From the NCBI GenBank assembly GCA_910578855.1, contig CAJTRV010000004.1, forward strand, positions 5,551 through 69,550: a stretch of DNA of 64,000 nucleotides, given 5' to 3'. This document shows positions 4,604 to 64,000 of the stretch, in pieces. The DNA comes from an uncultured Bacilli bacterium (GTDB lineage Bacteria > Bacillota_I > Bacilli_A > RF39 > UBA660). A model generated the notes under the pieces. That model did not search any database. It saw nothing but the letters and a program-made list of their open reading frames with translations, and had not been told where the DNA came from. A program made the translations under genes and the position numbers. Within the stretch, counting starts at the first letter, position 1. Each line of letters starts with the position of its first letter.

Positions 4604-6496
4604 TTAGCGTTTATAACAATACACCTTTGAATTTTCCTTTTTATATTGATTAGCCGTTAATAACTGGCCTGTCTCTATACTAGGTTTCACCATAAAATCA
4701 CCATCATACCCTTCAGCCTTTAACAAGGGTTGACTACGCTTTCCGCAACCGCTTAACGGAAATGACTCTTTCATACCACGAATTCGATAATACAAACAAT
4801 TTAACACTTCATCAGAAAAAACATTCTTACATCTTTTTTCAGCTCCCATTAAAACATTCGTGACATTAATCTTTACTCCTGGTTGAAACTCAATATGCAC
4901 AACAATCTTATCATCATTTTTATCATCTTTTACCATGACTAACTCGCATGACAAAATATGTTTGGTATCTTTTAATATCTCATCGCTTATTAAAAATAAG
5001 GGAATTTTTTCGCCATTACTACTAATAAATTCATTTCCTATTCTTCCTTTGATATGAATAGATCCAAATTGATCAATATATCCATAAACTTGACAATCTC
5101 CCCATCTTTTTCCTGTATTATCATAAATAAAAAATTGCCTCGTCGCTTCCGGATTATTTTTATATCCTTTCATTGTACAATTAGAATTGGCAACTAATCT
5201 CCCTAGTTCATTGACTCCACATCGCTTCCCGTTCTGATCCAAGATAGCATACTCAGCCAAAGCAAATGGTTTTAAACCAAATGATTTTTTCCGTAGCCAA
5301 CATGATAATCGCTTTTCTTGTAATGCCTTATAGAGAGTAAAAAATAATCCACCGTGTTCACAATCTCCCCCACCAATCGAAAGGCAAACTGGCGTATAAG
5401 GTAAATGAAACAGATCCTTTCCCGCTTTAGTAGTTTTCAAAGCTTTATTAATAAACTTTTCTTCATTAGGTGCGACCGGCTCACCTACCGCAGTTGGTAT
5501 TATCAAGAATGGCAATTGTAAATTTCGGTATGACTCATCAAATCTAATTTTCTTCGCCGCATTTAACCAAAAACTTGTAGTAGCTGGAACAAAATTAGGT
5601 TTGTTAATCATCAAACTAGTCAAAAAGAAATTTTGATCATAGATTGGCTCTAAGGCAACCGTCCCATGCTGCGATAATACATCAGAAATACTCGTAATTA
5701 AATCCGTATTCGAATGAGCTGGAATATGCGCTAATCCTCTAATATTTTTCATTGCTGGTAATCCTGAAACATCAGAATCATGAATCCGCGCCATGGTAAC
5801 AAAACTTCTAATTCGATGAACAATTGCCTTGGGTCTTGTTGAATGGGTAGAACCACTACTATATGTAATGGTGAATTCATCATCTAAATTGGTATTGGCA
5901 GGAACAATATCCTCCATATCATCACCAAAAGCTGCAAACTCTTTCACATCGATGATTTTATCATTTTCACATTGAAATTCTGGAATTTTATTCCTAAATT
6001 CGCAAAAAATCTTATCTACCTCATCATAAGGATCTATCCCGTCCTTCAATGAACTAGTCAACGAAACCAAAACAATCTTTTCAATGCTACTTTCTAAAGT
6101 TATATTCTTAATATCTTCATATTGACAGTCAGTCGCAAAGAATACTTTTGAACTACAATCATCGATAATCTTTTTTATATAATCCTGATCAAACTGACTT
6201 CCAAAAAGATTAATTTTAGCTCCAAGCATACTAATAGCCAATAAAAGATAAATAAGTTCTGGTGTATTAGATAAGCATGCTGATACTTCATCACCTTGTT
6301 TTATTCCTAGTTTTCGTAATGACTTTGCATACCTATTTGCTTCTTTCAACATCTCTTGATAAGAGATGTTGGTACCGCGGTACCATAGGGATGGCGCATC
6401 TAAATTATCTTTGTTTCGCTCATAAATGTCTTGAAACCACGACTCGTTATGTTGTTCTATTTCACTTAGTACTTCTTTGATATCAGATTCTTTCAT
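4604..6496 (-). CDS. Adenylate-forming enzyme (ANL superfamily, acyl-CoA synthetase-like), divergent
   Basis: 630 aa. A degenerate AMP-binding motif TYSSGSTHSTRPKA replaces the usual T-S-G-T-T-G-x-P-K. A hinge-like GDCQVYGYIDQFGSIHIKGR is present. Confidence 0.6.
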   Translation of the reverse strand: MKESDIKEVLSEIEQHNESWFQDIYERNKDNLDAPSLWYRGTNISYQEMLKEANRYAKSLRKLGIKQGDEVSACLSNTPELIYLLLAISMLGAKINLFGSQFDQDYIKKIIDDCSSKVFFATDCQYEDIKNITLESSIEKIVLVSLTSSLKDGIDPYDEVDKIFCEFRNKIPEFQCENDKIIDVKEFAAFGDDMEDIVPANTNLDDEFTITYSSGSTHSTRPKAIVHRIRSFVTMARIHDSDVSGLPAMKNIRGLAHIPAHSNTDLITSISDVLSQHGTVALEPIYDQNFFLTSLMINKPNFVPATTSFWLNAAKKIRFDESYRNLQLPFLIIPTAVGEPVAPNEEKFINKALKTTKAGKDLFHLPYTPVCLSIGGGDCEHGGLFFTLYKALQEKRLSCWLRKKSFGLKPFALAEYAILDQNGKRCGVNELGRLVANSNCTMKGYKNNPEATRQFFIYDNTGKRWGDCQVYGYIDQFGSIHIKGRIGNEFISSNGEKIPLFLISDEILKDTKHILSCELVMVKDDKNDDKIVVHIEFQPGVKINVTNVLMGAEKRCKNVFSDEVLNCLYYRIRGMKESFPLSGCGKRSQPLLKAEGYDGDFMVKPSIETGQLLTANQYKKENSKVYCYKR

Positions 6497-6580
6497 AATA
6501 CCTCCATCAAACTTTACTACTCACTCTTATCATAACACAGTTAAATGAAATATAGAACTACTTTAATCATAAATATCTTC

Positions 6581-7672
6581 TTATTTTTGATAACGACTAA
6601 TATTTAAAATAATTCCAATACTAGACATCGTAATAAGCAAGCTAGAGCCTCCATAACTTAGAAATGGAAGTGTAACCCCAGTTACGGGAATTAAGCCAGT
6701 TACAACCATTAAATTTAAAATCGCTTGGAAGCCAATTTGAAAGGCAATCCCAAATGTCAAATACTTCGCAAACATATCTTGACTCTTTCTAGCAATCTTA
6801 AACGCACGCGTAAGAATAATAAGAAACAAACCAACGACAATAATGACCCCTAGAAAACCAAACTCTTCACTGATAATGGAGAATATAAAATCAGTCTGTG
6901 GTTCTGGTAGATAGAAATGCTTTTGTCGCGAATTTAAAAAGCCATAGCCAAATAATCCTCCAGGACCAATCGCATATAACGATTGAATGATCTGGAAGCC
7001 ACTACCAAGTGGATCCTTCCATGGATTTAAAAAGGATAATATCCGTTCTAACCGATAGGGAGCTACAGCAATCAAGCCAACAATCCCGGCCATTCCAAGC
7101 ATTCCCATGCGTAAGAAAAATTTGAAAGGAACACCGCCAACAAAGATAAGCCCCATAATACTCATCACGATAATCATTCCGGTTCCAAAGTCAGGTTGTA
7201 ACATAATAATTCCAAAGACAAGTAAGGTAAGGCTTAGAATCGGTAAAACCCCTTTTTTGATATCAGTCATCTGCTTTTCATTCTTAACCAGATACTTCGC
7301 TGTAAAAATGATAAGTGCCAATTTCATGAACTCACTTGGTTGAATCCCAAATGAGCCAATTCCAAACCAGCTACGACTTCCATTCCGAACCGTTCCAATC
7401 CCAGGAATTAAGACCAACACCAATAAAATAAAACAGGTAATAACCAAAGGTGTAGCCTTCTCATAATAAAGTCGATAATCAATTTTACTAATAACATACA
7501 TAAAAACTAGTCCCAAGAGAAAGAAGACACCTTGATTAATGACAAATTTAAATGGATTATGAAACTTATATTCAGCCCATACATAAGAAGCGGAATAAAT
7601 CATGATAATTCCAAAGATGGAAATCAAGATCACACTAATCAGAAGTCCATAATCAATATTCCCTTTTTTCAT
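6581..7672 (-). CDS. ftsW: SEDS-family peptidoglycan polymerase FtsW/SpoVE
   Basis: 363 aa polytopic protein with motifs LPEPQTDFIFS and GVTLPFLSYGGSS. It sits immediately downstream of mraY in the dcw cluster. Confidence 0.85.
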   Translation of the reverse strand: MKKGNIDYGLLISVILISIFGIIMIYSASYVWAEYKFHNPFKFVINQGVFFLLGLVFMYVISKIDYRLYYEKATPLVITCFILLVLVLIPGIGTVRNGSRSWFGIGSFGIQPSEFMKLALIIFTAKYLVKNEKQMTDIKKGVLPILSLTLLVFGIIMLQPDFGTGMIIVMSIMGLIFVGGVPFKFFLRMGMLGMAGIVGLIAVAPYRLERILSFLNPWKDPLGSGFQIIQSLYAIGPGGLFGYGFLNSRQKHFYLPEPQTDFIFSIISEEFGFLGVIIVVGLFLIILTRAFKIARKSQDMFAKYLTFGIAFQIGFQAILNLMVVTGLIPVTGVTLPFLSYGGSSLLITMSSIGIILNISRYQK

Positions 7673-7684
7673 TCTATCACCCTT

Positions 7685-8677
7685 TTAAAACCATACTCCA
7701 AATGCCAGCGCAACCATTGCCCCCAATAGTCCGATAATCCAAAATAACTTCACAATATCATTTTCCTTCCAGCCCCATTTTTCAAAAGTATGATGAATCG
7801 GTGCCATAGGAAAAAGGCGTTTTTTCGTTAGTTTATAATAATAACGTTGTAAAATACAACTCATCGTTTCTAGAACAAAGACAATCCCGATGATCACTAG
7901 TAGCAATTCATGACGCGTCAAAATGGCTAGTGTTCCTAATGTTGCCCCAAGAGCGAGCGAACCGGTATCACCCATAAATATTTTAGCTGGTTTGGTATTA
8001 AACACAAGAAACCCTAGTAGTGATCCAATCAGAATAAAACAAAATAAGCCAAGATCCGTATACCCCTCTAACCAACCAGTATTATAACTAATTAAACCAA
8101 AAGCAAGAAAAGCAATAACGGAAAGACCGCCAGCAAGACCATCTAAGCCATCGGTTAAGTTAACCGCATTACTACTGGCAAGGAGCAAAAAGAGAATAAA
8201 TAAACCATAGAAGAACCCGATGTTACAGCGAATATTAAATGTATGAATCCAGATTAGTGGCTCGTTCCCAGCTTTCATAAATAAATAGAAAAAGACAATC
8301 GCAATGATCAATTGTAATAATAATTTTTGTCCCTCCGATAATCCTTTATTATTATGTCTTAACACAATTAGATAGTCATCGATAAACCCAATCATTGCAT
8401 AACCAATAAACGATAATAAAACGATTGCTAGCGTATAAGTCATCACCATCTTGCCTGTAAGAATTAAGATCGTCACCGTAAATAACGTTGGAAGTAGGAA
8501 AATAAGTCCGCCCATCGTCGGTGTATGCGACTTACTCTGGTGGGCCTCCCGAAGATAAATACTGAGATTTTGATCAACCTTAAATTTCTTTAAAATAGGA
8601 ATGAGAATCGCAGCGGTAATCACCGATAAAATAAATCCGATCATCATTGCTAGTACTGATTTTGTCATTAGTAACAT
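7685..8677 (-). CDS. mraY: Phospho-N-acetylmuramoyl-pentapeptide transferase
   Basis: 330 aa with motifs NAVNLTDGLDGLA and FMGDTGSLALG. SD ggagga lies 6 nt upstream of ATG 8677. Confidence 0.92.
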   Translation of the reverse strand: MLLMTKSVLAMMIGFILSVITAAILIPILKKFKVDQNLSIYLREAHQSKSHTPTMGGLIFLLPTLFTVTILILTGKMVMTYTLAIVLLSFIGYAMIGFIDDYLIVLRHNNKGLSEGQKLLLQLIIAIVFFYLFMKAGNEPLIWIHTFNIRCNIGFFYGLFILFLLLASSNAVNLTDGLDGLAGGLSVIAFLAFGLISYNTGWLEGYTDLGLFCFILIGSLLGFLVFNTKPAKIFMGDTGSLALGATLGTLAILTRHELLLVIIGIVFVLETMSCILQRYYYKLTKKRLFPMAPIHHTFEKWGWKENDIVKLFWIIGLLGAMVALAFGVWF

Positions 8678-53853: not shown

Positions 53854-54230
53854 AATTTTTCTCCTAACATTATTTCCATAATTTCTTGAATTCGATTAAA
53901 GTGACCATTTAGATAATGATACCCAATTAATGCTTCTAAACCAGTTGATTCTTTATAAGTTACAATGTCAGTATGCTTAGGATGACGAGATCCTTTATGA
54001 TTCCTGGCACGTTTCACAATCTGAATCTCTTCGGTTGTTAATGATTCCTGATCTAGTAACATTTTTAAATAACGACTTTGGGCTTTGGCACTAACATATT
54101 GAACAGCTTCTTTCTGAAGATCATTCACTTTACAAAGACCTTTTTTTAATAACAGAGTCCGAATAACAACTTCATAAATACTATCACCAACATAAGCCAA
54201 CGCCAAAACATTTAGGCAATCTGTTTTCAT
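53823..54230 (-). CDS. mrnC: Mini-ribonuclease 3
   Basis: 135 aa with motif LALAYVGDSIYE, which resembles the RNase III signature. It lies upstream of rlmB. Confidence 0.8.
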   Translation of the reverse strand: MKTDCLNVLALAYVGDSIYEVVIRTLLLKKGLCKVNDLQKEAVQYVSAKAQSRYLKMLLDQESLTTEEIQIVKRARNHKGSRHPKHTDIVTYKESTGLEALIGYHYLNGHFNRIQEIMEIMLGEKLCISMEKMSH

Positions 54231-55108
54231 ACAAGTTCCTCAATTCGATCAAAGGTAATTCCTTTTATTAGACCACTTTTCATATCGTTTAAAATGAGAT
54301 TCATCACGCGGTCATAATCAATTTCCCCACCCTGAATCATACATCCTCGACGTTTACCAATGATATCCAACGTGTTAACCATATCTTCTTCATCAATAGT
54401 CGTAATTCCATAACGTGATTCTAACTCCTGAGGATAATAAGTATATAGCATGTTCAAAATGTAACAGACCACATCATAAATAGGCAATACTTCCTCTTTA
54501 ATTGCCGTTAAACTTGCGAGATTAAGGGCAATAGTTTGATCATCAAACTTCGGCCATAGTACCCCTGGTGAGTCTAACAATTCAAGACGCTGATTGATGC
54601 GAATCCAATCCAATGACTTCGTCACTCCAGGACGGTTTCCAACATTGGCAACCTTTTTTCCAACTAAGCGATTGATCAATGTGCTCTTTCCAACATTGGG
54701 AATCCCGACAACAAGGACCCGAATACGTCTTGATTTCATTCCTCTAGCAATCATATCATCCATCTTATCTTGCATCATCGCTTCAGTCTTTTTCACTATT
54801 CCGGTTGTACTTTGTTGATGCTCTAAATCAACCCCCATTACTTGATAACCTAGTTGTTCATAATACCGAATCCAGCGCTCTGTTTCTTTTTTATCACATA
54901 GATCCATCTTGGTCATAATTAACAACTTCGGCTTATTTCCAATAATCGATTCAATATCTTGAATCTTTGATGAGTATGGCATCCGAGCATCGATTACTTC
55001 ATAAACAACATCAATAACACTCATTTTTTCCTTCATAATTCGCTTGGCTTTCGCCATGTGACCGGGATACCAGTTGATTGTCGTATTTTGTCCTTTATTG
55101 TCGTTCAT
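54227..55108 (-). CDS. rbgA: Ribosome biogenesis GTPase A (YlqF/RbgA), circularly permuted GTPase
   Basis: The start is at MNDNKGQNTTINWYPGHMAKAKR (ATG 55108, SD aaggaag). The G4-like MTKMDL precedes the G1 motif GIPNVGKSTLIN. The longer track ORF to 55156 lacks an SD. Confidence 0.88.
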   Translation of the reverse strand: MNDNKGQNTTINWYPGHMAKAKRIMKEKMSVIDVVYEVIDARMPYSSKIQDIESIIGNKPKLLIMTKMDLCDKKETERWIRYYEQLGYQVMGVDLEHQQSTTGIVKKTEAMMQDKMDDMIARGMKSRRIRVLVVGIPNVGKSTLINRLVGKKVANVGNRPGVTKSLDWIRINQRLELLDSPGVLWPKFDDQTIALNLASLTAIKEEVLPIYDVVCYILNMLYTYYPQELESRYGITTIDEEDMVNTLDIIGKRRGCMIQGGEIDYDRVMNLILNDMKSGLIKGITFDRIEELV

Positions 55109-55123
55109 TTGTTTCACTTCCTT
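55070..55123 (-). repeat. Junction A: native rbgA SD plus first 13 codons, the chromosomal member of the repeat family that bounds the cassettes
   Basis: The minus strand reads aaggaagtgaaacaaATGAACGACAATAAAGGACAAAATACGACAATCAACTGG and then continues into rbgA (TATCCCGGTCAC). It aligns with copies B and C up to AACTGG (plus ccagtt at 55070-55075). Confidence 0.7.
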
Positions 55124-55559
55124 TAGATTTATTTTTATATTTAACATATTCTTCAATTTTTTTATTATAGTTCTTTAAATCTTCTACAAATTGAGGCTTA
55201 AATTGATTTAAATAATCAATGATTAAATCAGCATATTCATCAATATTTTCATCATCAACTATATCTATGAGATATTTATTGATTCCTTTTTTAGTATTTA
55301 TTCTTTCTACATAAAAGGCTAACAAATTAGTTGGACCTATTTTTTCTTTTGCTGATAAAACAATAGAAATCAAATTTTCTCTTGATGCATAATATCTCGG
55401 TTTAAATCCATTTGACCTAGAAAATAATATCAAAGTACAACCAATAAATAATTTATCTGAACCATTTTTAGGAAATGTTTTGTTTGCAAATTCAATTAAA
55501 CTTTCTGTATTACCCTGTTCGTAATCATCATATAGTTCCATTAAAATTCTATTTATCAT
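55095..55559 (-). CDS. Hypothetical protein (cassette 1 cargo)
   Basis: 154 aa with SD gaggag upstream of ATG 55559. The last 13 codons read through the rbgA SD and start codon. No motif is recognised. Confidence 0.5.
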   Translation of the reverse strand: MINRILMELYDDYEQGNTESLIEFANKTFPKNGSDKLFIGCTLILFSRSNGFKPRYYASRENLISIVLSAKEKIGPTNLLAFYVERINTKKGINKYLIDIVDDENIDEYADLIIDYLNQFKPQFVEDLKNYNKKIEEYVKYKNKSKGSETNERQ

Positions 55560-55569
55560 TTTATCTCCT

Positions 55570-55845
55570 CTATTTATATAGACTTTTTATAACTCTATTA
55601 ATGCAATCTTTGGCACTTCTGTTATTATTTGAAAAACTAATTTTTACTAATGTCCCATTTACTTTAAAAGCATATGGATTCTTTGTGGAAGCAATAAAAT
55701 CCAATATTCTTTCATTACTAGGTTTTCTTCTATCTATTTTTATATTTGTTATTTCATCCACATCTTCTAATTTTACATCATCAAGATTTACATTTCTACA
55801 TCTTTCTAATTTTTCTGCTAATTCTTTAATATTATATTTATTCAT
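55570..55845 (-). CDS. Small DUF6870-like protein (cassette 1)
   Basis: The start is at MNKYNIKELAEK (ATG 55845, SD ggagtg). The pattern ...DVDEITNIKIDRRKPSNERILDFIASTKNPYAFKVNGTLVKISFS resembles small proteins I recall from Firmicute mobile elements. That assignment is from memory. Confidence 0.5.
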   Translation of the reverse strand: MNKYNIKELAEKLERCRNVNLDDVKLEDVDEITNIKIDRRKPSNERILDFIASTKNPYAFKVNGTLVKISFSNNNRSAKDCINRVIKSLYK

Positions 55846-55927
55846 AAAATCACACTCCATATTAATTATAAAATCAAATACAATTAATGTTAAATGTGCA
55901 ATTTTTTATTATAAATGATAATCTTTA

Positions 55928-56953
55928 CTAATCTTTATTATTTTCTGAAGTTTCTAATAATTTTGTACTTTCAATAAATTTATCGAAGTCAGAAATATAT
56001 AATTGGTCTTGTTTTTCCTTAAACTTATCATACTCTTTATATGCAAGTTCTTGAGCCACTTTATGAGATATTTTTCCTGCATCATGCAGTATTTCTTGCC
56101 CATTAAATTGTAAAAACGCATCCAATTTTTCTACCCAATCTTTCATTGTCATCGCATTATGATTTTCTGCTTGTAATTCAGCATAATCTAAATACATAGT
56201 AACTATTCTATTTAAGTTTTTTAATTCTTTTTCTGTCAAATAATTTTTAGCAATATCAACATCATATTTATAAATCGTTCCATCAGGAGAACCTGTCCAA
56301 TTTGTTAAACCCATATTGTCTTTTTCTGAATCAACTCTATTATAAATAATCTCTGCAGCAGTATTACCAGTGACTGAATAATGAAGTTTATTCTGCACAG
56401 TTTTAAAAAAAGTTTTAGTGATTTCTGAATCTTTATCATAATCAACACTACAAGATGAATATATATCTGTTATCTTTTGGTAAAATCTTCTTTCACTAGA
56501 ACGAATATTTCTAATTCTTTCTAGTGTTCTTTCAAAATAATCTTCTCCAAAAATATAATTTGGATTTTTTAATCTCTCGTCATCCATAACAACGCCAGTA
56601 ATTAAGTATTCTTTTAGAACTTTTGTTGCCCATATTCTAAATTGCGTTGCTTTTTTGGAATTAACTCTATAACCTACAGCAATAATCATATCTAAATTGT
56701 ATATTTTAGATTTTCTTCCACCTGTACTTTCGTCGGAAATTCCGACAGAAGTTTCTTCCTTAAGTTCACCACTATTTAATATATTATTAATATGTTCTGT
56801 TATGGTACTTCTACCTACTCCAAATAATTCAGCAATCAAATTTTGCGTCAACCAAATATCATTATTAATTAATAATACATTCACTTTGATATCATTATTA
56901 TCATCACGATATATTAAAAAGTCGTGGGTAGTTATTTGTAAATTATTTTTCAT
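55928..56953 (-). CDS. RhuM-family protein (N-terminal HTH, conserved RhuM core)
   Basis: 341 aa with motifs WLTQNLIAELFGVGRSTITEHINNI, YNLDMIIAVGYRVNSKKATQFRIWATKVLKEYL, SERRFYQKITDIY and MYLDYAELQA. Confidence 0.75.
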   Translation of the reverse strand: MKNNLQITTHDFLIYRDDNNDIKVNVLLINNDIWLTQNLIAELFGVGRSTITEHINNILNSGELKEETSVGISDESTGGRKSKIYNLDMIIAVGYRVNSKKATQFRIWATKVLKEYLITGVVMDDERLKNPNYIFGEDYFERTLERIRNIRSSERRFYQKITDIYSSCSVDYDKDSEITKTFFKTVQNKLHYSVTGNTAAEIIYNRVDSEKDNMGLTNWTGSPDGTIYKYDVDIAKNYLTEKELKNLNRIVTMYLDYAELQAENHNAMTMKDWVEKLDAFLQFNGQEILHDAGKISHKVAQELAYKEYDKFKEKQDQLYISDFDKFIESTKLLETSENNKD

Positions 56954-57209
56954 TTATTTTCACCGCTTTCTTATGTTCTTAAATGTCGTAATCACCTATC
57001 TAATTTCTATTATAAATAGCGCAAAAATTACTATATTTTTATGAATTTTTATTGTTTTTTATCATTTTTTAATGAAAACATGCAAGATATAAATTGGATA
57101 GTTTCCTTTATTTATAAGGGTTTAAGGGTGTTCTTAATTAAATCGTAATCAACCAGTTTATGTTTGCCTGATTTTGTCGATTTTCATTATTCATTTATTT
57201 CACTTCCTT
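56954..57209 (-). repeat. Cassette-boundary repeat B, containing a decoy rbgA 5' end
   Basis: Positions 57107-57209 match 59039-59141 at 99 of 103 nt; the rest is roughly 80% identical by eye. It contains SD, ATG (57194) and MNNENRQNQANINWLITI* (57138-57194), the core ccagtt at 57153-57158, and two cgtaatc motifs at 56987 and 57144. Confidence 0.8.
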
Positions 57210-57704
57210 CAATTCAATATTATTTTCTAATAAAACGCTTTCTAATGTTTCATTTTCGTTTATAATATATAAGTTCTCATAATTTCTTTGCAAACAATCC
57301 TCATAGAATGGAACAAATACATTTCCCAAGCCACTAATAAAACTTTCATTATTACCTCGATTTATACACTTTCTCTTTACATCTTCCCAATTATTAATAT
57401 TAGGATATGCTATACTGTATTTAATATTATTTTTATCGAAATAATCGAAGTGTTCTGGTTTTAATTGAACTAAAACAACATCATATTCCTTTATAGCCAT
57501 TCGAATGGCTTTATAGTAATTCTTTGGCCATTCACTATTTACTTCTCTTTTCGTTCCTTTTCTTGCTTCAACAGGTACATTTTCAAGATTAGTATTAATA
57601 TATTTAAAATTACTCGATTCTAAATCAATTACATTCCTATATTTTTTACCCAAAATGCTTTTTCCACACGTTGCAAATCCTGCAATTATTATTCCCTTAG
57701 CCAT
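57195..57704 (-). CDS. P-loop NTPase/kinase-like protein (cassette 2 cargo)
   Basis: 169 aa with Walker A IIIAGFATCGKS. The C-terminal KEVK and stop are encoded by the repeated rbgA SD segment, and the TAA abuts the decoy ATG (TAAATG). Confidence 0.55.
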   Translation of the reverse strand: MAKGIIIAGFATCGKSILGKKYRNVIDLESSNFKYINTNLENVPVEARKGTKREVNSEWPKNYYKAIRMAIKEYDVVLVQLKPEHFDYFDKNNIKYSIAYPNINNWEDVKRKCINRGNNESFISGLGNVFVPFYEDCLQRNYENLYIINENETLESVLLENNIELKEVK

Positions 57705-57993
57705 TATTTACCTCTTGTCTATATAAATTTTCTAAAATTTTAGTTAAACAATCATCTGCAGTTAAATTACTATTTTCTGAAAATCTTATTCTAACTAATT
57801 TCCCATTGACTTTAAATATATATGGGTTCTTTTTCTTCATTACAAACGCTAATATTCTTTCATTACTAGGTTTTCTTCTATCTATTTTTATATCTGTTAT
57901 TTCATCCACATCTTCTAATTTTACATCGTCAAGATTTACATTTCTACATCTCTCTAATTTTTCTGCTAATTCTTTAATATTATGTTTATTCAT
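57697..57993 (-). CDS. Small DUF6870-like protein (cassette 2)
   Basis: The start is at MNKHNIKELAEK (ATG 57993). The first 143 nt match the cassette 1 paralog at 139 of 143 positions, and the C-terminal half is diverged. It overlaps the next gene by 8 nt. Confidence 0.5.
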   Translation of the reverse strand: MNKHNIKELAEKLERCRNVNLDDVKLEDVDEITDIKIDRRKPSNERILAFVMKKKNPYIFKVNGKLVRIRFSENSNLTADDCLTKILENLYRQEVNNG

Positions 57994-58056
57994 ATTATAC
58001 CTTCTTTCTATAATAATTTTATTATTTAGAAAGAAATAACACAAATGTGCAAAATA

Positions 58057-58899
58057 CTAGATATTATCTTTTTCTCCTAATAGTTTTATCTTTTCTGCAT
58101 TATTAAGTATATCAAGTTGATACTTAGCAATGCTACTTAATATTTCAAATCTTTCTTCTTTGCTTTTTCCTTCTTTAATTAGTTCTGCATTATGTGATTC
58201 TAAATTAGATAATACTGTTAATTCATTTATCGATGCATAATCTCTAACATTTGAGTTTTTTGCTAAATTCGGATTAAGTTCTCTCCATCTTTTAGCAGTT
58301 GTGTTAAATAAGGCAACATTTAAAATATCTGCTTCTTCTGCATACTTTAACCATTCTCTATCTTTATAATAATCATTATCAGGTAATATATAATTTTTAA
58401 TTGCATCTGTATGAATAAGATAATTATTTTTGGTTAAGATTCTTTTTATATCCCATTCCCTATTTTGATTTTCTAACTCTTTTAGTCTTTCAAATTCTTT
58501 TATCAAATATAGTTTAAAAACCGGACTAATAGAAGATGCAAATTCAAAAGCAATGTCTTTATGAGCATAAGTTCCACCATATTTTCCACGCTTCGAATAT
58601 ATCCCAATTGCATTTGTTTTACTACACCATTCTGTAACACTTAGTGTAAAAGTATGAAGTCCTGCCTCACTTTTAAACCCGTCGAATTCGACGGAATTAA
58701 AATTTGGATTGTAAATTGACTCCCAAGTACCTAAAAATTCTAAAGTAATTCTATTTCTTAACCAATTTCTGATAACATCATCTGATGTAGATTTTCCTTC
58801 TTTAAACTTGGTAAAATCAGAAATACAAATATAATCGCTATCATTTATATTTGTTATGTTCACTTTAATATTTTGAACTTCAATTATTTTGTTTGGCAT
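58057..58899 (-). CDS. KilA-N domain protein
   Basis: 280 aa. ICISDFTKFKEG...IRNWLRNRITLEFLGTWE...GGTYAHKDIAFEFASSISP has the KilA-N layout. Confidence 0.7.
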   Translation of the reverse strand: MPNKIIEVQNIKVNITNINDSDYICISDFTKFKEGKSTSDDVIRNWLRNRITLEFLGTWESIYNPNFNSVEFDGFKSEAGLHTFTLSVTEWCSKTNAIGIYSKRGKYGGTYAHKDIAFEFASSISPVFKLYLIKEFERLKELENQNREWDIKRILTKNNYLIHTDAIKNYILPDNDYYKDREWLKYAEEADILNVALFNTTAKRWRELNPNLAKNSNVRDYASINELTVLSNLESHNAELIKEGKSKEERFEILSSIAKYQLDILNNAEKIKLLGEKDNI

Positions 58900-59141
58900 A
58901 TATTCGCCTCTTTTCCATGTCCTTAAAATTCGTAATCACCTATCTAATTCTTATAATAAATAATACCAAAATTATTAGTTTTTATATTTTTAATTATTTT
59001 TTAATGAAAATATGCAAGATCTAATCTAGATAATTTTCTTTATTTATAAGGGTTTAATGGTATTCTTAATTAAATCGTAATCAGCCAGTTTATGTTTGCC
59101 TGATTTTGTCGATTTTCATTATTCATTTGTTTCACTTCCTT
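58900..59141 (-). repeat. Cassette-boundary repeat C, containing a decoy rbgA 5' end
   Basis: It is homologous to repeat B throughout. It contains SD, ATG (59126) and MNNENRQNQANINWLITI* (59070-59126), the core ccagtt at 59085-59090, and cgtaatc motifs at 58931 and 59076. Confidence 0.8.
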
Positions 59142-59147
59142 TATTAT

Positions 59148-59321
59148 TTAACATTGAGAATTTAAAAAATTTGCAATTTGTTCTAAATTTTTAAATATTT
59201 TTCCATCATTTCTTATAACTATTCCTCTTGCACCATATCTCATTCTAGGCTCATTCATTTCAATCATACTTTCGCCTAAATCTTCATCAGTTATTTTACA
59301 TATTAATTTCATTAATATCAT
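59148..59321 (-). pseudogene. Possible 5' fragment of a NUDIX-type hydrolase gene (57 codons)
   Basis: My translation is MILMKLICKITDEDLGESMIEMNEPRMRYGARGIVIRNDGKIFKNLEQIANFLNSQC*. The RxGARGIVIxxDGKI stretch resembles the strand preceding a Nudix box, but the box itself is absent. Confidence 0.25.
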
Positions 59322-59338
59322 CTCGCTTTCATTTTATA

Positions 59339-59863
59339 TTACAACTTGTATTCTTTTATCTCACAATTCTTCAATCCACGATTTAAAAACCAACCATCAT
59401 TAATGCCATCAAAATATGCACTAAAAGCTTTTGAAACACCACTATGTGCAACAATTAAAACACTTTTATAATTTTGAGTTTTAAGTTCATCTAAAAAATT
59501 ATATATTCTATCAAAAAAGTCTTTTATATTTTCAGAGGTTCCATATTGAATTGTTGTATTATAATTCCAATATTCATCACGATTAGTTATTTCAAGAGGT
59601 TTACCACTTAAATCTCCACAACTTCTTTCTTGAATTCTATCATCAATAATAATTTCATTATTATTAGCATTAATAATATTAGCTGTGTGTTTTGCCCTAA
59701 TTAAAGGTGAAGAAATTATAATATCAAAGTTTATATCTTTAATTTTGTCTCTTAATTCTTCTGCTTGACTTATTCCAAGTTCAGTTAAATCTTCATCTTT
59801 TGTATTATATTGTTTCAATGCATTATGAGGTACTTCACCATGTCTTACTATATATATTTTCAT
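59339..59863 (-). CDS. Histidine phosphatase family protein (phosphoglycerate-mutase-like)
   Basis: 174 aa with the RHG motif IYIVRHGEVPHN, plus SSPLIRAKHTA and VAHSG. Confidence 0.75.
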   Translation of the reverse strand: MKIYIVRHGEVPHNALKQYNTKDEDLTELGISQAEELRDKIKDINFDIIISSPLIRAKHTANIINANNNEIIIDDRIQERSCGDLSGKPLEITNRDEYWNYNTTIQYGTSENIKDFFDRIYNFLDELKTQNYKSVLIVAHSGVSKAFSAYFDGINDGWFLNRGLKNCEIKEYKL

Positions 59864-59989
59864 TTATTGACTCCTTTTTTATAGAATTTTTATAGTAACA
59901 TTTTATCATCGAGGATATATATTTATTTTATTATTGATACCATTATATTAAAATCATACTCATTTTTACTATTTTTATCTGTTTCTAAG

Positions 59990-61254
59990 GTTATATGATT
60001 ATTCTCTGTTTTTCCTTTAAAATAAAGCAAATCAGCTATTTTAAATTGTCGTGTCATTTCGCGTACACAAGCCAGGAAGTCAGGCCCATATGTTCTTTAT
60101 TTGAATCAACTCTATTATATATAATTTCTGCTGTTTGTTTTGATACAGCAAAATGCATTTTGTTTTGTACTTTTTTAAAAAATTCAATTGATATTGGAGA
60201 TTTAAAATCATAGTCAATACTTGTAGCATATATATCTGTTATTTTTTGATAAAATCGCCTTTCTGATAACCTTATTTCTCTAATTTCTTCTAATAATTTT
60301 TCAAAATAATCTTCTCCAAAAATATAATTTGGATTTTTTTATCTTTCGTCATCCATAACAGCATCATTAATTAGATATTCTTTTAAAACCTTTGTTGCCC
60401 ATATTTTAAATTCTGTTGCTTTTTTAGAATTGATCCTGTATCCAACTACAATAATTACATCTAAATTATATATTTTGGTTTTATATTTTTTACCATCAGA
60501 GGCAGTTATCGAGGATTCCTCGATAACTGAATCCTGATTTAATGCATTATCTTTAGAAATTGCAGATTTTTTTATTTCCTTTTCATATAAATCTCTAGCA
60601 CCTTTAGCAACTCCTCCGCCTCTTTTTGCTACATTTAAATTTTCTTTTAAACCTTGCGGATGTTCTTCTCTTGCAATATCTCGTGTTGCAATCTCTCCTA
60701 TATTTGTTCACTAGCTTTCATTCCAGACCACCCCTTATAGATTTCATTGGTTTGGTTATGCCTCCTTCTTTCCAAACATCTGTAAGTTTAAATCTATCTA
60801 CAACCCCCATTAGTCTTGCCTTAATCCATTCATCAGAGTACCCTTTATTACGATAATAATTTACTGCTCTATTTATTGCAATTTCAGGATCAAATACTTC
60901 ATCAATCCTCTCACTACCAAGACTCGCTAACCAAACTTTAAATGGTTCGGCCTTAGGGCTAGAAACTGATTCAATTAATCTTAATATTCCATTTGTATCT
61001 AAAGTATCAGTTATACGATTTTTACCATCCCGGGCCTCCATTTTCAACTGCACGATTTCTTCGTGCAGTTCACTTCCTTCATAAATTAATCTTCTTTTTA
61101 AACCGCTCCAATAATTTCTTGGGATTTTTGCTTCAGTTAATACACTTATTACATCAGCAACGCTAAAATAATACTCTTCTTTTTCACTATCCCAAATGCT
61201 TCTTATTTCTTTACCTTCAAATAAATTTGATATTGTTTCTAATTTGTTGTTCAA
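59990..61254 (-). pseudogene. Bro-N / RhuM-core chimeric gene, inactivated
   Basis: The N-terminal Bro-N-like ORF (TTG 61254 to 60718) reads FEGKEIRSIWDSEKEEYYFSVADVISVL. A frameshift near 60715 follows. The RhuM core then continues in another frame (YNLDVIIVVGYRINSKKATEFKIWATKVLKEYL). An in-frame TAA at 60339-60341 sits where the intact paralog has TTA (DER-L-KNPN). The 3' end is truncated near 60054. Confidence 0.7.
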
Positions 61255-61396
61255 ATATAACACCTCTTTTCTATGGTCTTAAATGCCGTAATCATCTTTC
61301 TAATTCTTAAATAAAAATATGGAAAATTTAAAATCGTACAACCTCCTTATTTATAGGGATTTACTTAAGAGTGCAATAAATCGTAATCAAACAGTT
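61255..61396 (-). repeat. Cassette-boundary repeat D, the outermost, degenerate copy with no rbgA decoy
   Basis: It shares with B and C the blocks cttaaatgccgtaatca, tttataggg/tttataaggg and aaatcgtaatcaaacagtt. Homology stops at acagtt (61391-61396). Beyond that a different short frame, MRQEKRIAKVIKKVFHQSELTV*, reads into the core. Confidence 0.6.
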
Positions 61397-61503
61397 AATT
61401 CTGACTGATGAAAAACTTTTTTGATTACTTTCGCTATTCTTTTTTCTTGTCTCATTTTTCCCTTTTGATATATATCCATATTTTTCACTTTCTTTTCAAT
61501 AGT

Positions 61504-62064
61504 TTAAAGTTTTTTACCCATTACAATGGGTCTATCATCATAAATATGAATTCTGTTATTTATATCACTAATTAATGCAACAAGTTTTCTAGGATTTTCT
61601 ACTCCTTCAAAACTCATTCCATTTTTTATTTGTTCAATTAAATTATTAGCATAAAAATTAAAAGATATATCTCCATAATTATTTTTTTCTCTTGCAATTC
61701 CAATATGTTCTATATCAGATATATTTTCTATCCTAAATCCATTTTTAGAATTATATAGAGCTATCCTTTTATTGGTAATAAAATATTCATTATTTTTCTT
61801 TTTATATTTTAAGAATATATTATAAACTAATCCATAAATTAAACAAATTGTTAATATGCCCAAAGTAAGAAAAATTATCAAAATTTCAAAATTTAGTATT
61901 TCCCCACTTTTTATACCTATTATAATTAATATCCAAAATAATAACAATACGGCAAAACCTAATAAAAATCTACCATATTGTTTACTAGTCTTACTAACGT
62001 TTGAAACACCATAGAATAATATTTTTTCATTCTCTTCCAATTTATTTATAAACTCATTTTTCAT
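61504..62064 (-). CDS. Membrane protein with bacterial PH-like (YdbT/bPH_2-type) domain
   Basis: 186 aa. EKILFYG is followed by two TM segments and then YFITNKRIALYN, as in bPH_2 proteins. Confidence 0.45.
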   Translation of the reverse strand: MKNEFINKLEENEKILFYGVSNVSKTSKQYGRFLLGFAVLLLFWILIIIGIKSGEILNFEILIIFLTLGILTICLIYGLVYNIFLKYKKKNNEYFITNKRIALYNSKNGFRIENISDIEHIGIAREKNNYGDISFNFYANNLIEQIKNGMSFEGVENPRKLVALISDINNRIHIYDDRPIVMGKKL

Positions 62065-62201
62065 TTATCTCTCTCCTTACAATTTATTAAATATAATACC
62101 ATTTAATAAAAGAGAATTCCTTTATTAAAATCATTCTAGTTTTATCCACTATAGATTCCTCATAAGATAACCATTTATTCATTTCGAAAATGCATTTATT
62201 T

Positions 62202-62840
62202 TTATTTAAAGATTACATATGGAATGCCCATTTTATGATAAACATCATAAGCTCGTGGCCACGAGAACATTCGGGCAATTAATAAATTATAAAGTTCATC
62301 AAACATGATGATAGAACACAATGTAATTGAAAGCATTAAAAATAATTTTTTATTCATCCGTTTCGCAAGAAAAAAACACATAGGAATTATGACATACATC
62401 AACAATAAACTAGATAACCCAAAGAACATAACACTTCTTAAACAAACAAAACCATGAATGTTTCCAAAGTTTAAAATTTCCGAATTATAATCCCAACAAC
62501 GCATTCCATTTCCAATGATATACATGCCCAAACCTGATATATATTCGAGAATCCCAGTTGCAAAAAAACTAATTAAAAATACCCAGAATGGTTTTTTTCG
62601 ATGCTTGTAAGTTAATAGATAAATCATAATTGAACCTGTCGCATATATATTAATCCATGGTAAGAAATTACCACCTCGCCAATAAAATTGTTTCATACCA
62701 CCATTAAAATAATAAAATATAAATTCATAGATCCAACCAAAAATTCCGGTGATAACGATTAACAGACAACAAATTCCTAGCATCGTCCATTTATCAAACG
62801 AATGATTATTTTCTATATAATGTTTATACCATTTCTTCAT
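62202..62840 (-). CDS. Polytopic membrane protein (possibly the putative ABC-transporter type IV / DUF1113 family)
   Basis: 212 aa with about 6 TM segments and an N-terminal GIFGWIYEFIFYYF. The family call is from memory. Confidence 0.4.
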   Translation of the reverse strand: MKKWYKHYIENNHSFDKWTMLGICCLLIVITGIFGWIYEFIFYYFNGGMKQFYWRGGNFLPWINIYATGSIMIYLLTYKHRKKPFWVFLISFFATGILEYISGLGMYIIGNGMRCWDYNSEILNFGNIHGFVCLRSVMFFGLSSLLLMYVIIPMCFFLAKRMNKKLFLMLSITLCSIIMFDELYNLLIARMFSWPRAYDVYHKMGIPYVIFK

Positions 62841-62896
62841 ACTACTAAACTCCTACCTCATTATATCGTAAACAAAATATTAACTTAACAATTGTC

Positions 62897-64000
62897 CTAC
62901 TTTCGTTCTTCCATTTTCAATATTTTTTGTTTTCCTTTTTCATAACTGCTATCTAACACTTGCTGCTGCTTTAATAACTGTTCTTGTTGAGCCATAACCG
63001 TTTCTTCTAACGATTGTAATTCCTCTAAAAATTGTTCCACTTCAGGACTTCGATCATAAGCGAACTGTCCCATAAACTCCATCTTTAACGATTGAAGTTG
63101 ATCAAGTGAATCAGCGCAAAAATCAATCGACATCATCAAAGCATCTTTCTCTGTTTTTAATTGTTTCATTATCTTTTTTAAATCAAAATAAGCAATATCC
63201 TCGTTTCGGTCTTTGACCATATTGCGCATACCGCGAATTCCATGGTTCGTAAGCAATATCCCAGTTAGTAAGCCAAAGGCATTCTTGCGACTCTTTAATA
63301 ACGTAAAAACCCCCAGACTAGCAAACATTGTATGTTTAATTAACGATCCTAATCGAAAGAGACGACCACGTTTTCTCTTATGTTGTGGCAGTTTCCAAAG
63401 ACTCGCCTGTAATGACTCAATCATAATCCGTTGTTTGGTAATTTCTTGACTCATTTTTTTCTTTTCCAGAGTAATATCGACCATTTTCTCTTTTTGTTTA
63501 TTCAATACTTGTTTCTCTTTTTCTTTTTTTACCACTTGCTGCTTCTGCTTCACTTGCAATTGGTGAGTTCGCTCTTGACACTTCTTCAATCTTGATGCAA
63601 AGATAAGATCGGATGTTAAAAAATGTTCCTTATCTATCTTTTTTAATGTCTTATCAGAGGCAAACTTTGAAAAACGATATTGCTTTCGCATCGATAATTC
63701 TGACATATGACAAGAAAATATTTTATCATAAAGATTCGATAATTGAAGCAGAACCATTCCTATTTCCTTGTCATCAATTGATCCAGTATATTTTGCAAGT
63801 TCCCGGTCAAATTCTTTTAGTTTTTCATGACTTTCTTCTAAATATTGAGCAAGTACCACGATCGCTGGATCTTTACCCTCACCGACTTTTTTTCGTTGTG
63901 GAGAAACCAAGACCATTTCCGTGGCTTCTGCTAGCGCTATTTCTTTTTGTTCTAATTGTTCACTTACCGCATCGATCGTATCAAGTGTTTCCTCAAGTTG
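62897..64000 (-). CDS. Coiled-coil protein with a central hydrophobic hairpin; the ORF is open at the right edge
   Basis: The track starts it at Met 63916, but the frame stays open to position 64000 (…QLEETLDTIDAVSEQLEQKEIALAEATEMVLV…). It is K/E/Q-rich, with a TM-like segment MFASLGVFTLL...LLTGILL. Confidence 0.5.
   Translation of the reverse strand, partial: QLEETLDTIDAVSEQLEQKEIALAEATEMVLVSPQRKKVGEGKDPAIVVLAQYLEESHEKLKEFDRELAKYTGSIDDKEIGMVLLQLSNLYDKIFSCHMSELSMRKQYRFSKFASDKTLKKIDKEHFLTSDLIFASRLKKCQERTHQLQVKQKQQVVKKEKEKQVLNKQKEKMVDITLEKKKMSQEITKQRIMIESLQASLWKLPQHKRKRGRLFRLGSLIKHTMFASLGVFTLLKSRKNAFGLLTGILLTNHGIRGMRNMVKDRNEDIAYFDLKKIMKQLKTEKDALMMSIDFCADSLDQLQSLKMEFMGQFAYDRSPEVEQFLEELQSLEETVMAQQEQLLKQQQVLDSSYEKGKQKILKMEERK

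Follow-up and report, generated by a model that had tools for sequence, protein, structure and literature searches.

How has the gene rbgA (ylqF) of an uncultured Bacilli bacterium come to lie behind several near copies of its own start? The question is raised by a stretch of 64,000 nucleotides (contig CAJTRV010000004.1; called the window here, and the frame for all coordinates), in which rbgA is preceded by three cassettes of about 2 kb each, all in one orientation and delimited by four junctions (A to D). Every gene of the array is on the minus strand (Table 1). From comparisons with other strains and species, the locus is most probably a tandem stack of three non-autonomous integrative cassettes, placed at the 5' end of rbgA in the attachment site of a family of large serine recombinase (LSR) elements. 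As the sequence reads, the Shine-Dalgarno sequence (SD), the ATG and the first 12 codons of rbgA come from cassette 1.

An earlier reading made from the nucleotide sequence alone (the sequence-only reading) had described a repeat family at the four junctions. A repeat search and a four-way alignment recover it in the same places. The search gives three sets of matching stretches (55075-55125, 57161-57211 and 59093-59143; 57139-57161, 59071-59093 and 61377-61399; 56942-57039, 58886-58983 and 61242-61339), and 57047-57209 is 90% identical to 58979-59141. AACTGG is present at 55070-55075, 57153-57158 and 59085-59090, and AACTGT at 61391-61396. The core-to-core distances of 2083, 1932 and 2306 bp (cores at 55070, 57153, 59085 and 61391) are reproduced. 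The positions given for a break in similarity at AACTGG also hold, but in the wider family the common core extends by one base, to TGGT, and only TG is invariant.

Junctions B and C both read GGAAGTGA-N5-ATG, MNNENRQNQANINW and then LITI-stop. As had been claimed, they are identical at 99 of 103 positions (57107-57209 against 59039-59141) and carry an SD and ATG with a reading akin to the RbgA N-terminus. At junction B the end of cassette 2 is followed by TG and the head of cassette 1, and the decoy open reading frame (ORF) ends after LITI; the decoy start of junction C is 56/57 identical to that of B. At junction A an identical SD precedes MNDNKGQNTTINW, and the reading runs on as YPGHMAKA, which is RbgA: here the central TG links the end of cassette 1 to rbgA proper (GTATCCCGGTCACATGG). 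At junction D the core is where it had been placed and a decoy start is also present, but this is frameshifted and has no in-frame start codon. Its left side (D-left) is a frameshifted copy of a long element end, 'MDMYQKRK...SFPSVGIN' (MDMYQKRKIRAEKKKDDSPKSFPSVGIN), in which a deletion of 1 nt relative to an intact copy in another genome (L124) abolishes any in-frame start codon.

Could such an array have arisen simply by tandem (segmental) duplication of one 2-kb unit, or be an artefact of assembly? The units are similar in length with repeated boundaries, the two DUF6870 genes of the window are 95% identical over 151 nt, and other assemblies break here (L006, L008 and L012). Clearly, however, homology between the units is limited to their boundaries and to shared modules and never covers whole units, which was the sign of duplication named in the sequence-only reading. 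The three cassettes begin with genes of different families and have unrelated cargo genes. Independent assemblies from different samples (L001 and L004/L011) show the same three-cassette order, and single cassettes of the same kinds are found in more than 100 other genomes. On gene content, unit-by-unit comparison and the independent assemblies we have rejected this explanation, which retains almost no credibility.

Comparison of strains shows where the units join the gene. Contigs encoding an identical downstream mini-RNase III were taken as conspecific. Their DNA downstream of the core is 98-99.7% identical, and upstream of it five different contents are found: the array of the window (L001 and L004); this array with a small deletion (L005); DUF6870 with a 189-aa histidine phosphatase adjoining rbgA (L006, L009 and L010); RhuM with a 211-aa gene (L007); and a 163-aa resolvase-domain protein, DUF6870 and LSRs of 569 and 528 aa directly abutting rbgA (L002, where the LSR pair is at 5207-8459, and L003). 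The N-terminal peptides encoded upstream of the core differ among strains (MNDNKGQNTTIN, MNNSDKENVLNKSVIN, MDNNNRQNSTNIN and MKKKNNNEKSFTSVGVN), and all of these contents meet rbgA at AAC followed by TGGTATCCCGG. The conspecific strains are thus polymorphic exactly at the core and do not share an invariant block, the finding that would have spoken against insertion. These strain comparisons, with the junction comparisons below, back the earlier proposal of repeated site-specific insertion near the Trp-13 codon of rbgA by units that bring their own SD, ATG and N-terminal codons.

The other flank is constant: D-left and the genes of 212, 31 and 186/187 aa are retained in all strains. After D-left, strains of the L013 type go into a RhuM cassette and the window into a Bro-N cassette. 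In L013, L016, L017 and L018 about 90 nt are deleted between the 186/187-aa gene and D-left, fusing the ORF to the relic.

The junctions are also found well beyond this species. The motif TGATTACGATTTA-N18-25-TATAAATAA occurs in at least 118 species-level genomes, nearly all of them metagenome-assembled genomes (MAGs) of uncultured gut Bacilli, 'Tenericutes', Acholeplasmatales or Clostridia. All but four of these matches come directly after an SD and an ATG that opens a short, rbgA-like peptide with ...INW at its end. Among the matches listed, rbgA is present in 40 of the 8-kb loci, with 39-63% amino acid identity to the RbgA of the window; in 40/40 a start of the cassette type is joined to TGGTAYCCNGGNCAYATG, and in the loci listed the cassettes are always co-oriented with rbgA. 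The 64 complete cassettes measure 751-4185 bp (median about 2 kb). Their usual order is a defence-candidate gene or a YhcG PDDEXK nuclease, DUF6870 and cargo. The cargo families include GNAT acetyltransferases, cytidine/dCMP deaminases, ASCH proteins and HAD and histidine phosphatases, as well as a methyltransferase, UDG, NUDIX, NT5C and a CAAX protease.

These junctions allow the crossover to be placed. The consensus of 128 of them is A-T-(C/A)-A-A-(C/T)-T-G-G-T followed by TGATTACGATTTA, and the context is a perfect inverted repeat, ATCAAC-TG-GTTGAT. T(-4) and G(-3) are 98% conserved. The neighbouring positions are variable (C 66% and T 34% at -5; G 82% and A 15% at -2), and no block of 6-8 bp shows obligatory identity. 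TGA is found in 19 of the 128 junctions and TGG in all 40 rbgA-proximal (attR) junctions. Since attR is always TGG despite the TGA junctions, the final G of the Trp codon would be supplied by the rbgA side, which places the exchange at or 5' of TG. Serine recombinases make a 2-bp staggered cut. The pattern of conservation fits such a 2-bp crossover and argues against the overlap of a tyrosine recombinase; the features of LSR attachment sites (imperfect inverted repeats, a non-palindromic 2-bp crossover and no longer identity) are all found. A non-palindromic TG would also impose a uniform orientation on the cassettes. The enzyme is therefore likely, as judged from these sites, to be an LSR cutting at TG.

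LSRs are also the only recombinases recurrently linked to the junctions, and they lie inside elements that share both cassette ends. Between 11 and 15 of the at least 118 loci contain one. In L002, L003 and L165 an LSR pair is followed by the element end and rbgA; L165 repeats the order PemK, DUF6870, LSR, LSR, rbgA at 41-49% identity. L080 has a junction, 5.7 kb without an internal junction, DUF6870 and an LSR 87% identical to the 569-aa protein (LSR569). L112 is a 4-kb element in which a junction is followed by Bro-N, two ORFs, a 411-aa LSR and rbgA. In L024, L090 and L130 the C-terminus of an LSR precedes, in this order, a decoy start, a junction and another cassette, so that cassettes and LSR elements reside together in arrays. 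With Resolvase, Recombinase and Zn_ribbon_recom domains, the proteins are genuine LSRs. Among PDB structures TnpX matches them best (9e-24), and the integrases of TP901-1 and phiC31 come next. The NCBIfam CcrB/CcrC models score them at 66-98 bits against a cutoff of 900 and, by this measure, they are not Ccr proteins.

We file the three cassettes as non-autonomous members of this LSR-element family because the LSR gene is absent from them and present in sister elements (L002, L003, L165, L080 and L112). No recombinase was found among the cassette ORFs with Pfam and NCBIfam. The sequence-only reading had proposed tandem accretion with a recombinase acting in trans and had suggested a search for a linked serine or tyrosine recombinase. 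The search yields LSRs in sister elements at the same site, both in conspecific strains (L002 and L003) and in other species, which supports the proposal at the level of inference: LSR catalysis at these sites and mobilisation in trans are presumed, as is the mobility of the three cassettes in the window.

The LSR-pair element itself deserves description. Copies of about 9-10 kb carry genes for ParB- and ParA-like proteins, a sigma-70 region-4 protein and a PemK toxin; ParB-N, ParA-like, sigma-70 region-4 and a PemK toxin-antitoxin pair are seen in L080 (365-8000), L065, L057 and L002. ParA-like and ParB-like proteins form the recurrent non-host clusters of the at least 118 loci. These plasmid-like maintenance genes hint at an episomal phase. 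The 163-aa protein of L002 consists of a resolvase catalytic domain alone.

A tyrosine recombinase supplied in trans must also be weighed. It could be of the Tn5253 Int/Xis type or the host Xer, as in integrative mobile elements exploiting Xer (IMEX), with AACTGGT as the overlap and the downstream repeat of the head block as an arm site. Tandem arrays of recombinase-less elements are typical of Xer-exploiting elements, and the motif repeated about 158 nt from the core resembles arm sites. The window does contain a gene for an Xer-type tyrosine recombinase, 13.5 kb from rbgA, which corrects the earlier statement that no integrase is encoded in the 64 kb; it is probably the housekeeping XerC/CodV. 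In streptococci, moreover, the rbgA 5' end is the proven attB of Tn5253 and of other integrative and conjugative elements (ICEs) that use tyrosine integrases, so that the gene is, contrary to the sequence-only reading, a described hotspot (PMC6079316, PMC4701971). Against this, no tyrosine recombinase is found among the recurrent gene clusters of the at least 118 loci, whereas LSRs do recur and always within elements with the same ends. Positions -5 and -2 vary freely beside TG, which is not expected of a 6-8 bp obligatory overlap. The repeated motif copies the half-site adjacent to the core and is not a distinct arm sequence, the junction is unlike the 28-bp dif site, and the attB of Tn5253 (83 bp, -63 to +20 of rbgA, with tyrosine Int/Xis) is at another position (PMC6079316, PMC4701971). 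We consider a tyrosine recombinase very unlikely.

The cassettes of the window contain the following genes. The three first genes (RhuM, KilA-N and Bro-N) match PDC-S05, PDC-S22 and PDC-S13, which are single-gene 'phage defence candidate' families of PADLOC. Cassettes 1 and 2 then have DUF6870 and a cargo gene; cassette 3 has no DUF6870 gene. The AlphaFold model of DUF6870 is moderate (pLDDT 74.8) and no PDB sequence match was found for it. The cargo ORFs extend through the SD of the following start. That of 154 aa ends within rbgA codons 4-5, overlapping the rbgA SD and start (55095-55123), and that of 169 aa immediately before the decoy ATG (57195-57209), which suggests translational coupling into rbgA. 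A look-up of the exact RbgA protein with the ATG start was empty, because gene callers chose an upstream TTG. In known plasmids and phages only the core of the RhuM gene matches (66-67%), and the head block was not found.

Table 1. Coordinates in the window of rbgA, the junctions, the three cassettes and neighbouring features
Feature	Position	Strand	Details
rbgA (ylqF) coding sequence	54227..55108	-	TIGR03596 GTPase_YlqF, 344 bits (cutoff 208)
Junction A, attR-like	55069..55123	-	SD 55114-55121; ATG 55106-55108; MNDNKGQNTTIN; TG 55071-55072; then GTATCCCGGTCACATGG
Cassette 1, 2.08 kb	55073..57153	-	Unit closest to rbgA
Cassette 1 cargo gene, 154 aa	55095-55559	-	
Cassette 1 DUF6870	55570-55845	-	Pfam 7e-20
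Cassette 1 RhuM	55928-56953	-	Pfam RhuM 4e-109; PADLOC PDC-S05 5e-140
Cassette 1 head block	56954-57153	-	Non-coding
Cassette 1 second half-site copy	56987-56993	-	Direct; GATTACG
Cassette 1 promoter-like TTGCAT	57080-57085	-	Then N18, TAAAAA
Cassette 1 head-block TATAAATAA	57108-57116	-	
Cassette 1 half-site TGATTACGATTTA	57139-57151	-	
Junction B, attP-like	57153..57209	-	Decoy SD 57200-57207; ATG 57192-57194; MNNENRQNQANIN; TG 57154-57155
Cassette 2, 1.93 kb	57156..59085	-	
Cassette 2 cargo gene, 169 aa	57195-57704	-	P-loop-like
Cassette 2 DUF6870	57697-57993	-	Pfam 2e-16
Cassette 2 KilA-N	58057-58899	-	Pfam 4e-19; PADLOC PDC-S22 7e-116
Cassette 2 head block	58900-59085	-	Half-site copies 59076-59082 and 58931-58937 (second copy, direct)
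Junction C, attP-like	59085..59141	-	Cassette 3 end; TG 59086-59087; cassette 2 head
Cassette 3, 2.3 kb	59088..61391	-	Most distal
Cassette 3 57-aa ORF	59148-59321	-	Looks like a gene fragment
Cassette 3 His_Phos_1 histidine phosphatase	59339-59863	-	Pfam 4e-36
Cassette 3 RhuM-like remnants	60072-60575	-	Frameshifted, 3' of Bro-N; 79% identical to cassette 1 (65% aa)
Cassette 3 Bro-N ORF	60718-61263	-	Pfam Bro-N 3e-8; PADLOC PDC-S13 6e-69
Cassette 3 head block	61264-61391	-	Shortened
Cassette 3 second half-site copy	61287-61293	-	Direct
Junction D, attL-like, dead decoy start	61391..61493	-	D-left 61394-61493; TG 61392-61393; next base T instead of G
Flank with 186-aa, 31-aa and 212-aa ORFs	61504..62840 (to about 62900)	-	Low GC, 0.21-0.30
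Xer-type tyrosine recombinase, 298 aa	40752-41648	-	Phage_integrase 8.7e-48; N-terminal SAM-like domain

The island upstream of rbgA has a low GC content (0.21-0.30 against 0.35-0.43 in the surrounding DNA). Its outer part, the flank at 61504-62840, is retained with its three ORFs in all conspecific contigs examined (L011-L019). A motif scan found no half-site there. This flank is outside the three-cassette array and may be an older, fixed and decayed piece of the island.

Each cassette opens with a conserved non-coding head block of about 190 nt. This begins with the half-site GT-TGATTACGATTTA and a class-specific 10-mer, followed by CCTTATAAATAAAGG, by TTGCAT-N17/18-TGnTAAAAT and by a second, direct copy of the half-site (GGTGATTACGAC with the distal 9-10-mer). 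In 82/91 blocks about 158 nt separate the second copy from the first; in the window the spacing is 157, 145 and 95 nt in cassettes 1, 2 and 3. The distal motif of the half-site occurs in several classes (TTGCAACCCC, TTAAGAACA, TTTAAACCCC and TAGAAACTCC), and within a block the two copies vary together (mean best 9-mer match 7.99, compared with 6.43±0.15 in permuted pairs, a value inflated by kinship between blocks). To our knowledge, LSR sites have not been described with a duplicated direct half-site. LSRs might thus have accessory sites: the second copy may be an accessory or regulatory binding site for an LSR of the matching class.

A structured RNA or riboswitch in the head block was considered and rejected. 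Rfam gives no match at E<=1 over 54000-64000, and RNAalifold on 41 diverse head blocks gives -0.26 kcal/mol with no compensatory pairs or covariation. Because of this lack of a conserved RNA structure or Rfam match, the head block would seem to act as DNA. Its promoter-like element presumably keeps rbgA transcribed from the cassettes. A simple scan found no terminator-like site on the gene strand in 54900-61600; a simple promoter scan gave 35 sites against 49 expected and is uninformative in DNA as AT-rich as this.

Comparison of cassettes between genomes points to recent horizontal transfer of their modules, since these are 91-93% identical where rbgA is only 65-67% identical. For cassette 1 this holds over the first 1590 nt or so, which share 91-93% identity with cassettes of genomes that have an rbgA of only 65-67% nucleotide identity. 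Cassette 2 has 92-93% nucleotide identity to L117, L025 and L136, in the head block, KilA-N and DUF6870 only. This cross-genome homology stops at the end of DUF6870, beyond which the cargo differs, and the cassettes are thus also mosaics built by homologous recombination.

The same break is one starting point for another explanation, in which the cassettes are immobile relics of autonomous LSR elements and owe their diversity to homologous recombination or transformation between head blocks and DUF6870. The sharp end of homology with swapped cargo genes would be expected, solitary relics of element ends do exist (L147, L174, L177 and D-left of the window), junctions are deleted in L032 and L013, and a look-up of the exact KilA-N protein returned only the arrangement of the window itself. 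Against this, the architecture of about 2 kb is uniform, half-sites and decoy starts are intact and 107/128 junctions keep an in-frame ATG. Modules 91-97% identical are found in hosts whose flanks (65-67%) are too diverged for flank-mediated homologous recombination, and cassettes without an LSR are far commoner than LSR elements (LSR in 11-15 of at least 118 loci). Immobility is thus an unlikely, if not negligible, explanation.

With mobile cassettes served by LSR elements as the preferred explanation, the following mechanism can be proposed. The right end of a cassette consists of an SD, an ATG and 5-29 codons ending ...AT(C/A)AA(C/T). Strand exchange would most likely take place at the TG of the conserved Trp codon, within ATCAAC-TG-GTTGAT. 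Integration would push the native rbgA start upstream, where it becomes a decoy, and fuse the cassette start to ...GGTAYCCNGGNCAYATG; the essential gene would stay intact and be read from cassette promoters. As the element-derived start resembles the native one, the rbgA-proximal junction could be used again as a target, so that later arrivals would stack beside rbgA. The recombinase would come in trans from autonomous relatives with the same two ends, which occupy the same site in other strains. Two types of helper can be envisaged: an element of 9-10 kb with ParA, ParB, a PemK toxin-antitoxin pair, DUF6870 and two LSRs, and smaller elements (about 4 kb) whose only LSR is one of 411 aa. If excised, cassette 1 would form a circle with the junction ACGACAATCAAC-TG-GTTGATTACGATTTAATTAAGAACACCC.

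The state of the array suggests its history. Decay rises from the proximal to the distal end: no damage is seen in cassettes 1 and 2, whereas in cassette 3 there are pseudogenes and the head block is shortened, and D-left is frameshifted. The long end type of D-left lies directly after LSR genes in four metagenome contigs (L151, L164, L165 and L175), and in L147 (3053-3297) only the last 130 nt or so of an LSR remain before the long end and rbgA. From this gradient and from D-left as the relic of an LSR-linked end, we infer that an LSR element arrived first (only D-left survives), followed by cassettes 3, 2 and 1, and that the LSR element later decayed. Cassette 1 is probably the newest unit. 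Since an in-frame start is missing from D-left, D x A recombination would strip rbgA of its start codon, and at least the innermost state would be locked; B x A or C x A recombination would leave rbgA intact.

A search of metagenomes with a pattern joining D-left to the rbgA side gave 35 loci with the long end type fused to rbgA. On its upstream side some have LSR genes and others cassette genes (RhuM/KilA-N); further contigs are too short on that side to show either. No clearly unoccupied rbgA site was found with this pattern. The solitary relics of L147, L174 and L177 stand in front of rbgA and beside host ABC-transporter genes; in these genomes the rbgA N-terminus would be the fossil of a lost element.

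Variant half-sites (TGATACCGATTTA and TGCGATACGGATTTA) and longer arrays show that the family extends beyond the exact search pattern. For example, L141 (9766-17693 of a 1.06-Mb contig, GCA_949298035.1) has an array with at least four junctions, mostly with the half-site TGATACCGATTTA and with TGCT cores, and no LSR within 10 kb. L035 carries the other variant, TGCGATACGGATTTA. A single IMG/VR contig contains a junction (L138, 7369-7412; IMGVR_UViG_3300006149_000131), with a decoy start and a head block.

Several points weigh against mobilisation by LSRs as set out here. A tblastn search found no LSR in the three cassettes or anywhere in the window. Canonical LSRs recombine only attP x attB, or attL x attR with a directionality factor. 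By analogy with these enzymes, stacking and the excision of single cassettes would need a relaxed selectivity, as the internal junctions are all attP-like; such relaxed site selectivity is known for CcrAB. The second half-site copy has a closer superficial likeness to the arm sites that tyrosine integrases use, and homologous recombination has a part in shaping the cassettes too, as the break in homology at the end of DUF6870 shows. Finally, most junction data come from MAGs and metagenome assemblies.

How does the array relate to known systems? In Tn5253-type ICEs the same end of the same gene is used, the RbgA N-terminus stays functional and the region upstream can be replaced (PMC6079316, PMC4701971). 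They differ in being large conjugative elements with a tyrosine Int/Xis that form no cassette stacks. The crossover of the cassettes is at codon 13 (+38/39 of the coding sequence) and there is no similarity upstream of the SD. With no tyrosine integrase in the array and a different attachment position, the two look like a convergence on one target gene.

The closest working analogue is the staphylococcal cassette chromosome (SCC and SCCmec). These elements likewise use one or two LSRs (CcrAB or CcrC) and the end of a conserved ribosome-biogenesis gene, for which they supply replacement codons. They have direct repeats at all boundaries, and their tandem recombinase-less defence cassettes (SCC-like or psi-SCC, without ccr) are mobilised by the Ccr LSRs of a neighbour (PMC11470126). 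SCCmec is targeted to the 3' end of rlmH (orfX), whereas the cassettes are targeted to the 5' end of rbgA, at codon 13, and because the target is the beginning of a gene each cassette must supply an SD, a start codon and transcription. They are also small (about 2 kb, with a stereotyped gene order, against 20-60 kb), have a head block of 190 nt with a duplicated half-site and reside in uncultured gut Bacilli. They are not members of SCC/SCCmec: the recombinases are not of the CcrA/CcrB/CcrC family (66-98 bits against 900) and the target is not rlmH.

The sequence-only reading had likened the array to an integron or to a stack of cis-mobilisable elements (CIMEs). The second comparison stands as a description, since the definition (attachment sites without recombination or transfer genes) applies to junctions A-D and to ORFs that include no recombinase. 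CIMEs and the accretion of ICEs and integrative mobilisable elements, for example in the ICESt1/ICESt3 family at fda of Streptococcus thermophilus, involve tyrosine integrases and the 3' ends of genes. CIMEs too are flanked by attachment sites without integration genes, occur in tandem with autonomous relatives and can be mobilised in cis or in trans. They are regarded as decay products, whereas here the recombinase-less form is the commonest and most uniform. The first comparison fails: no IntI or attI is found beside the array, there are no attC hairpins and the repeats are direct, not inverted. Integrons do share small co-oriented cassettes at one site, with the newest nearest the functional end, a recombinase outside the cassettes and similar cargo (GNAT acetyltransferases and small enzymes). 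Unlike integron cassettes, these appear to carry their own promoters, and the recombinase is not fixed in the platform.

A bolder interpretation, which we put forward tentatively and think less probable than not, is that the locus belongs to an unrecognised, integron-like gene-capture platform across gut Bacilli that is driven by serine recombinases and has the cassette of about 2 kb as its main unit of mobility. The standard cassette would consist of a head block with promoter, a defence-candidate gene, DUF6870, cargo and a surrogate rbgA start, and would use any of several LSR helpers matched to its half-site class. The second half-site at 158 nt, perhaps with DUF6870, would serve as a novel type of accessory site or control directionality, allowing the LSR to recombine attP-like junctions with each other. 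Since it has taken over the start of an essential gene, the innermost cassette could then not be lost.

Searches of the literature turned up no publication that deals with DUF6870, with an LSR at rbgA/ylqF or with these cassettes as a family. A family of miniature, stereotyped and promoter-bearing cassettes at the start of an essential gene, in more than 100 uncultured gut species, is thus apparently undescribed. If real, it adds widespread mobile elements to the poorly studied gut Bacilli (at least 118 species-level genomes and, from a search with just one end type, 35 metagenome contigs). The logic of SCCmec would not be unique to staphylococci: it appears to have an independent origin here, on a miniature scale and at the start of a gene. 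The cassettes provide a catalogue of compact candidate defence genes (RhuM/PDC-S05, KilA-N/PDC-S22, Bro-N/PDC-S13 and YhcG nucleases) together with small modifying enzymes, and new pairs of LSRs and attachment sites with a defined TG core may be of use in genome engineering. In many species the N-terminus of RbgA, its ribosome-binding site and probably its promoter come from a mobile element, which matters for the annotation of rbgA starts.

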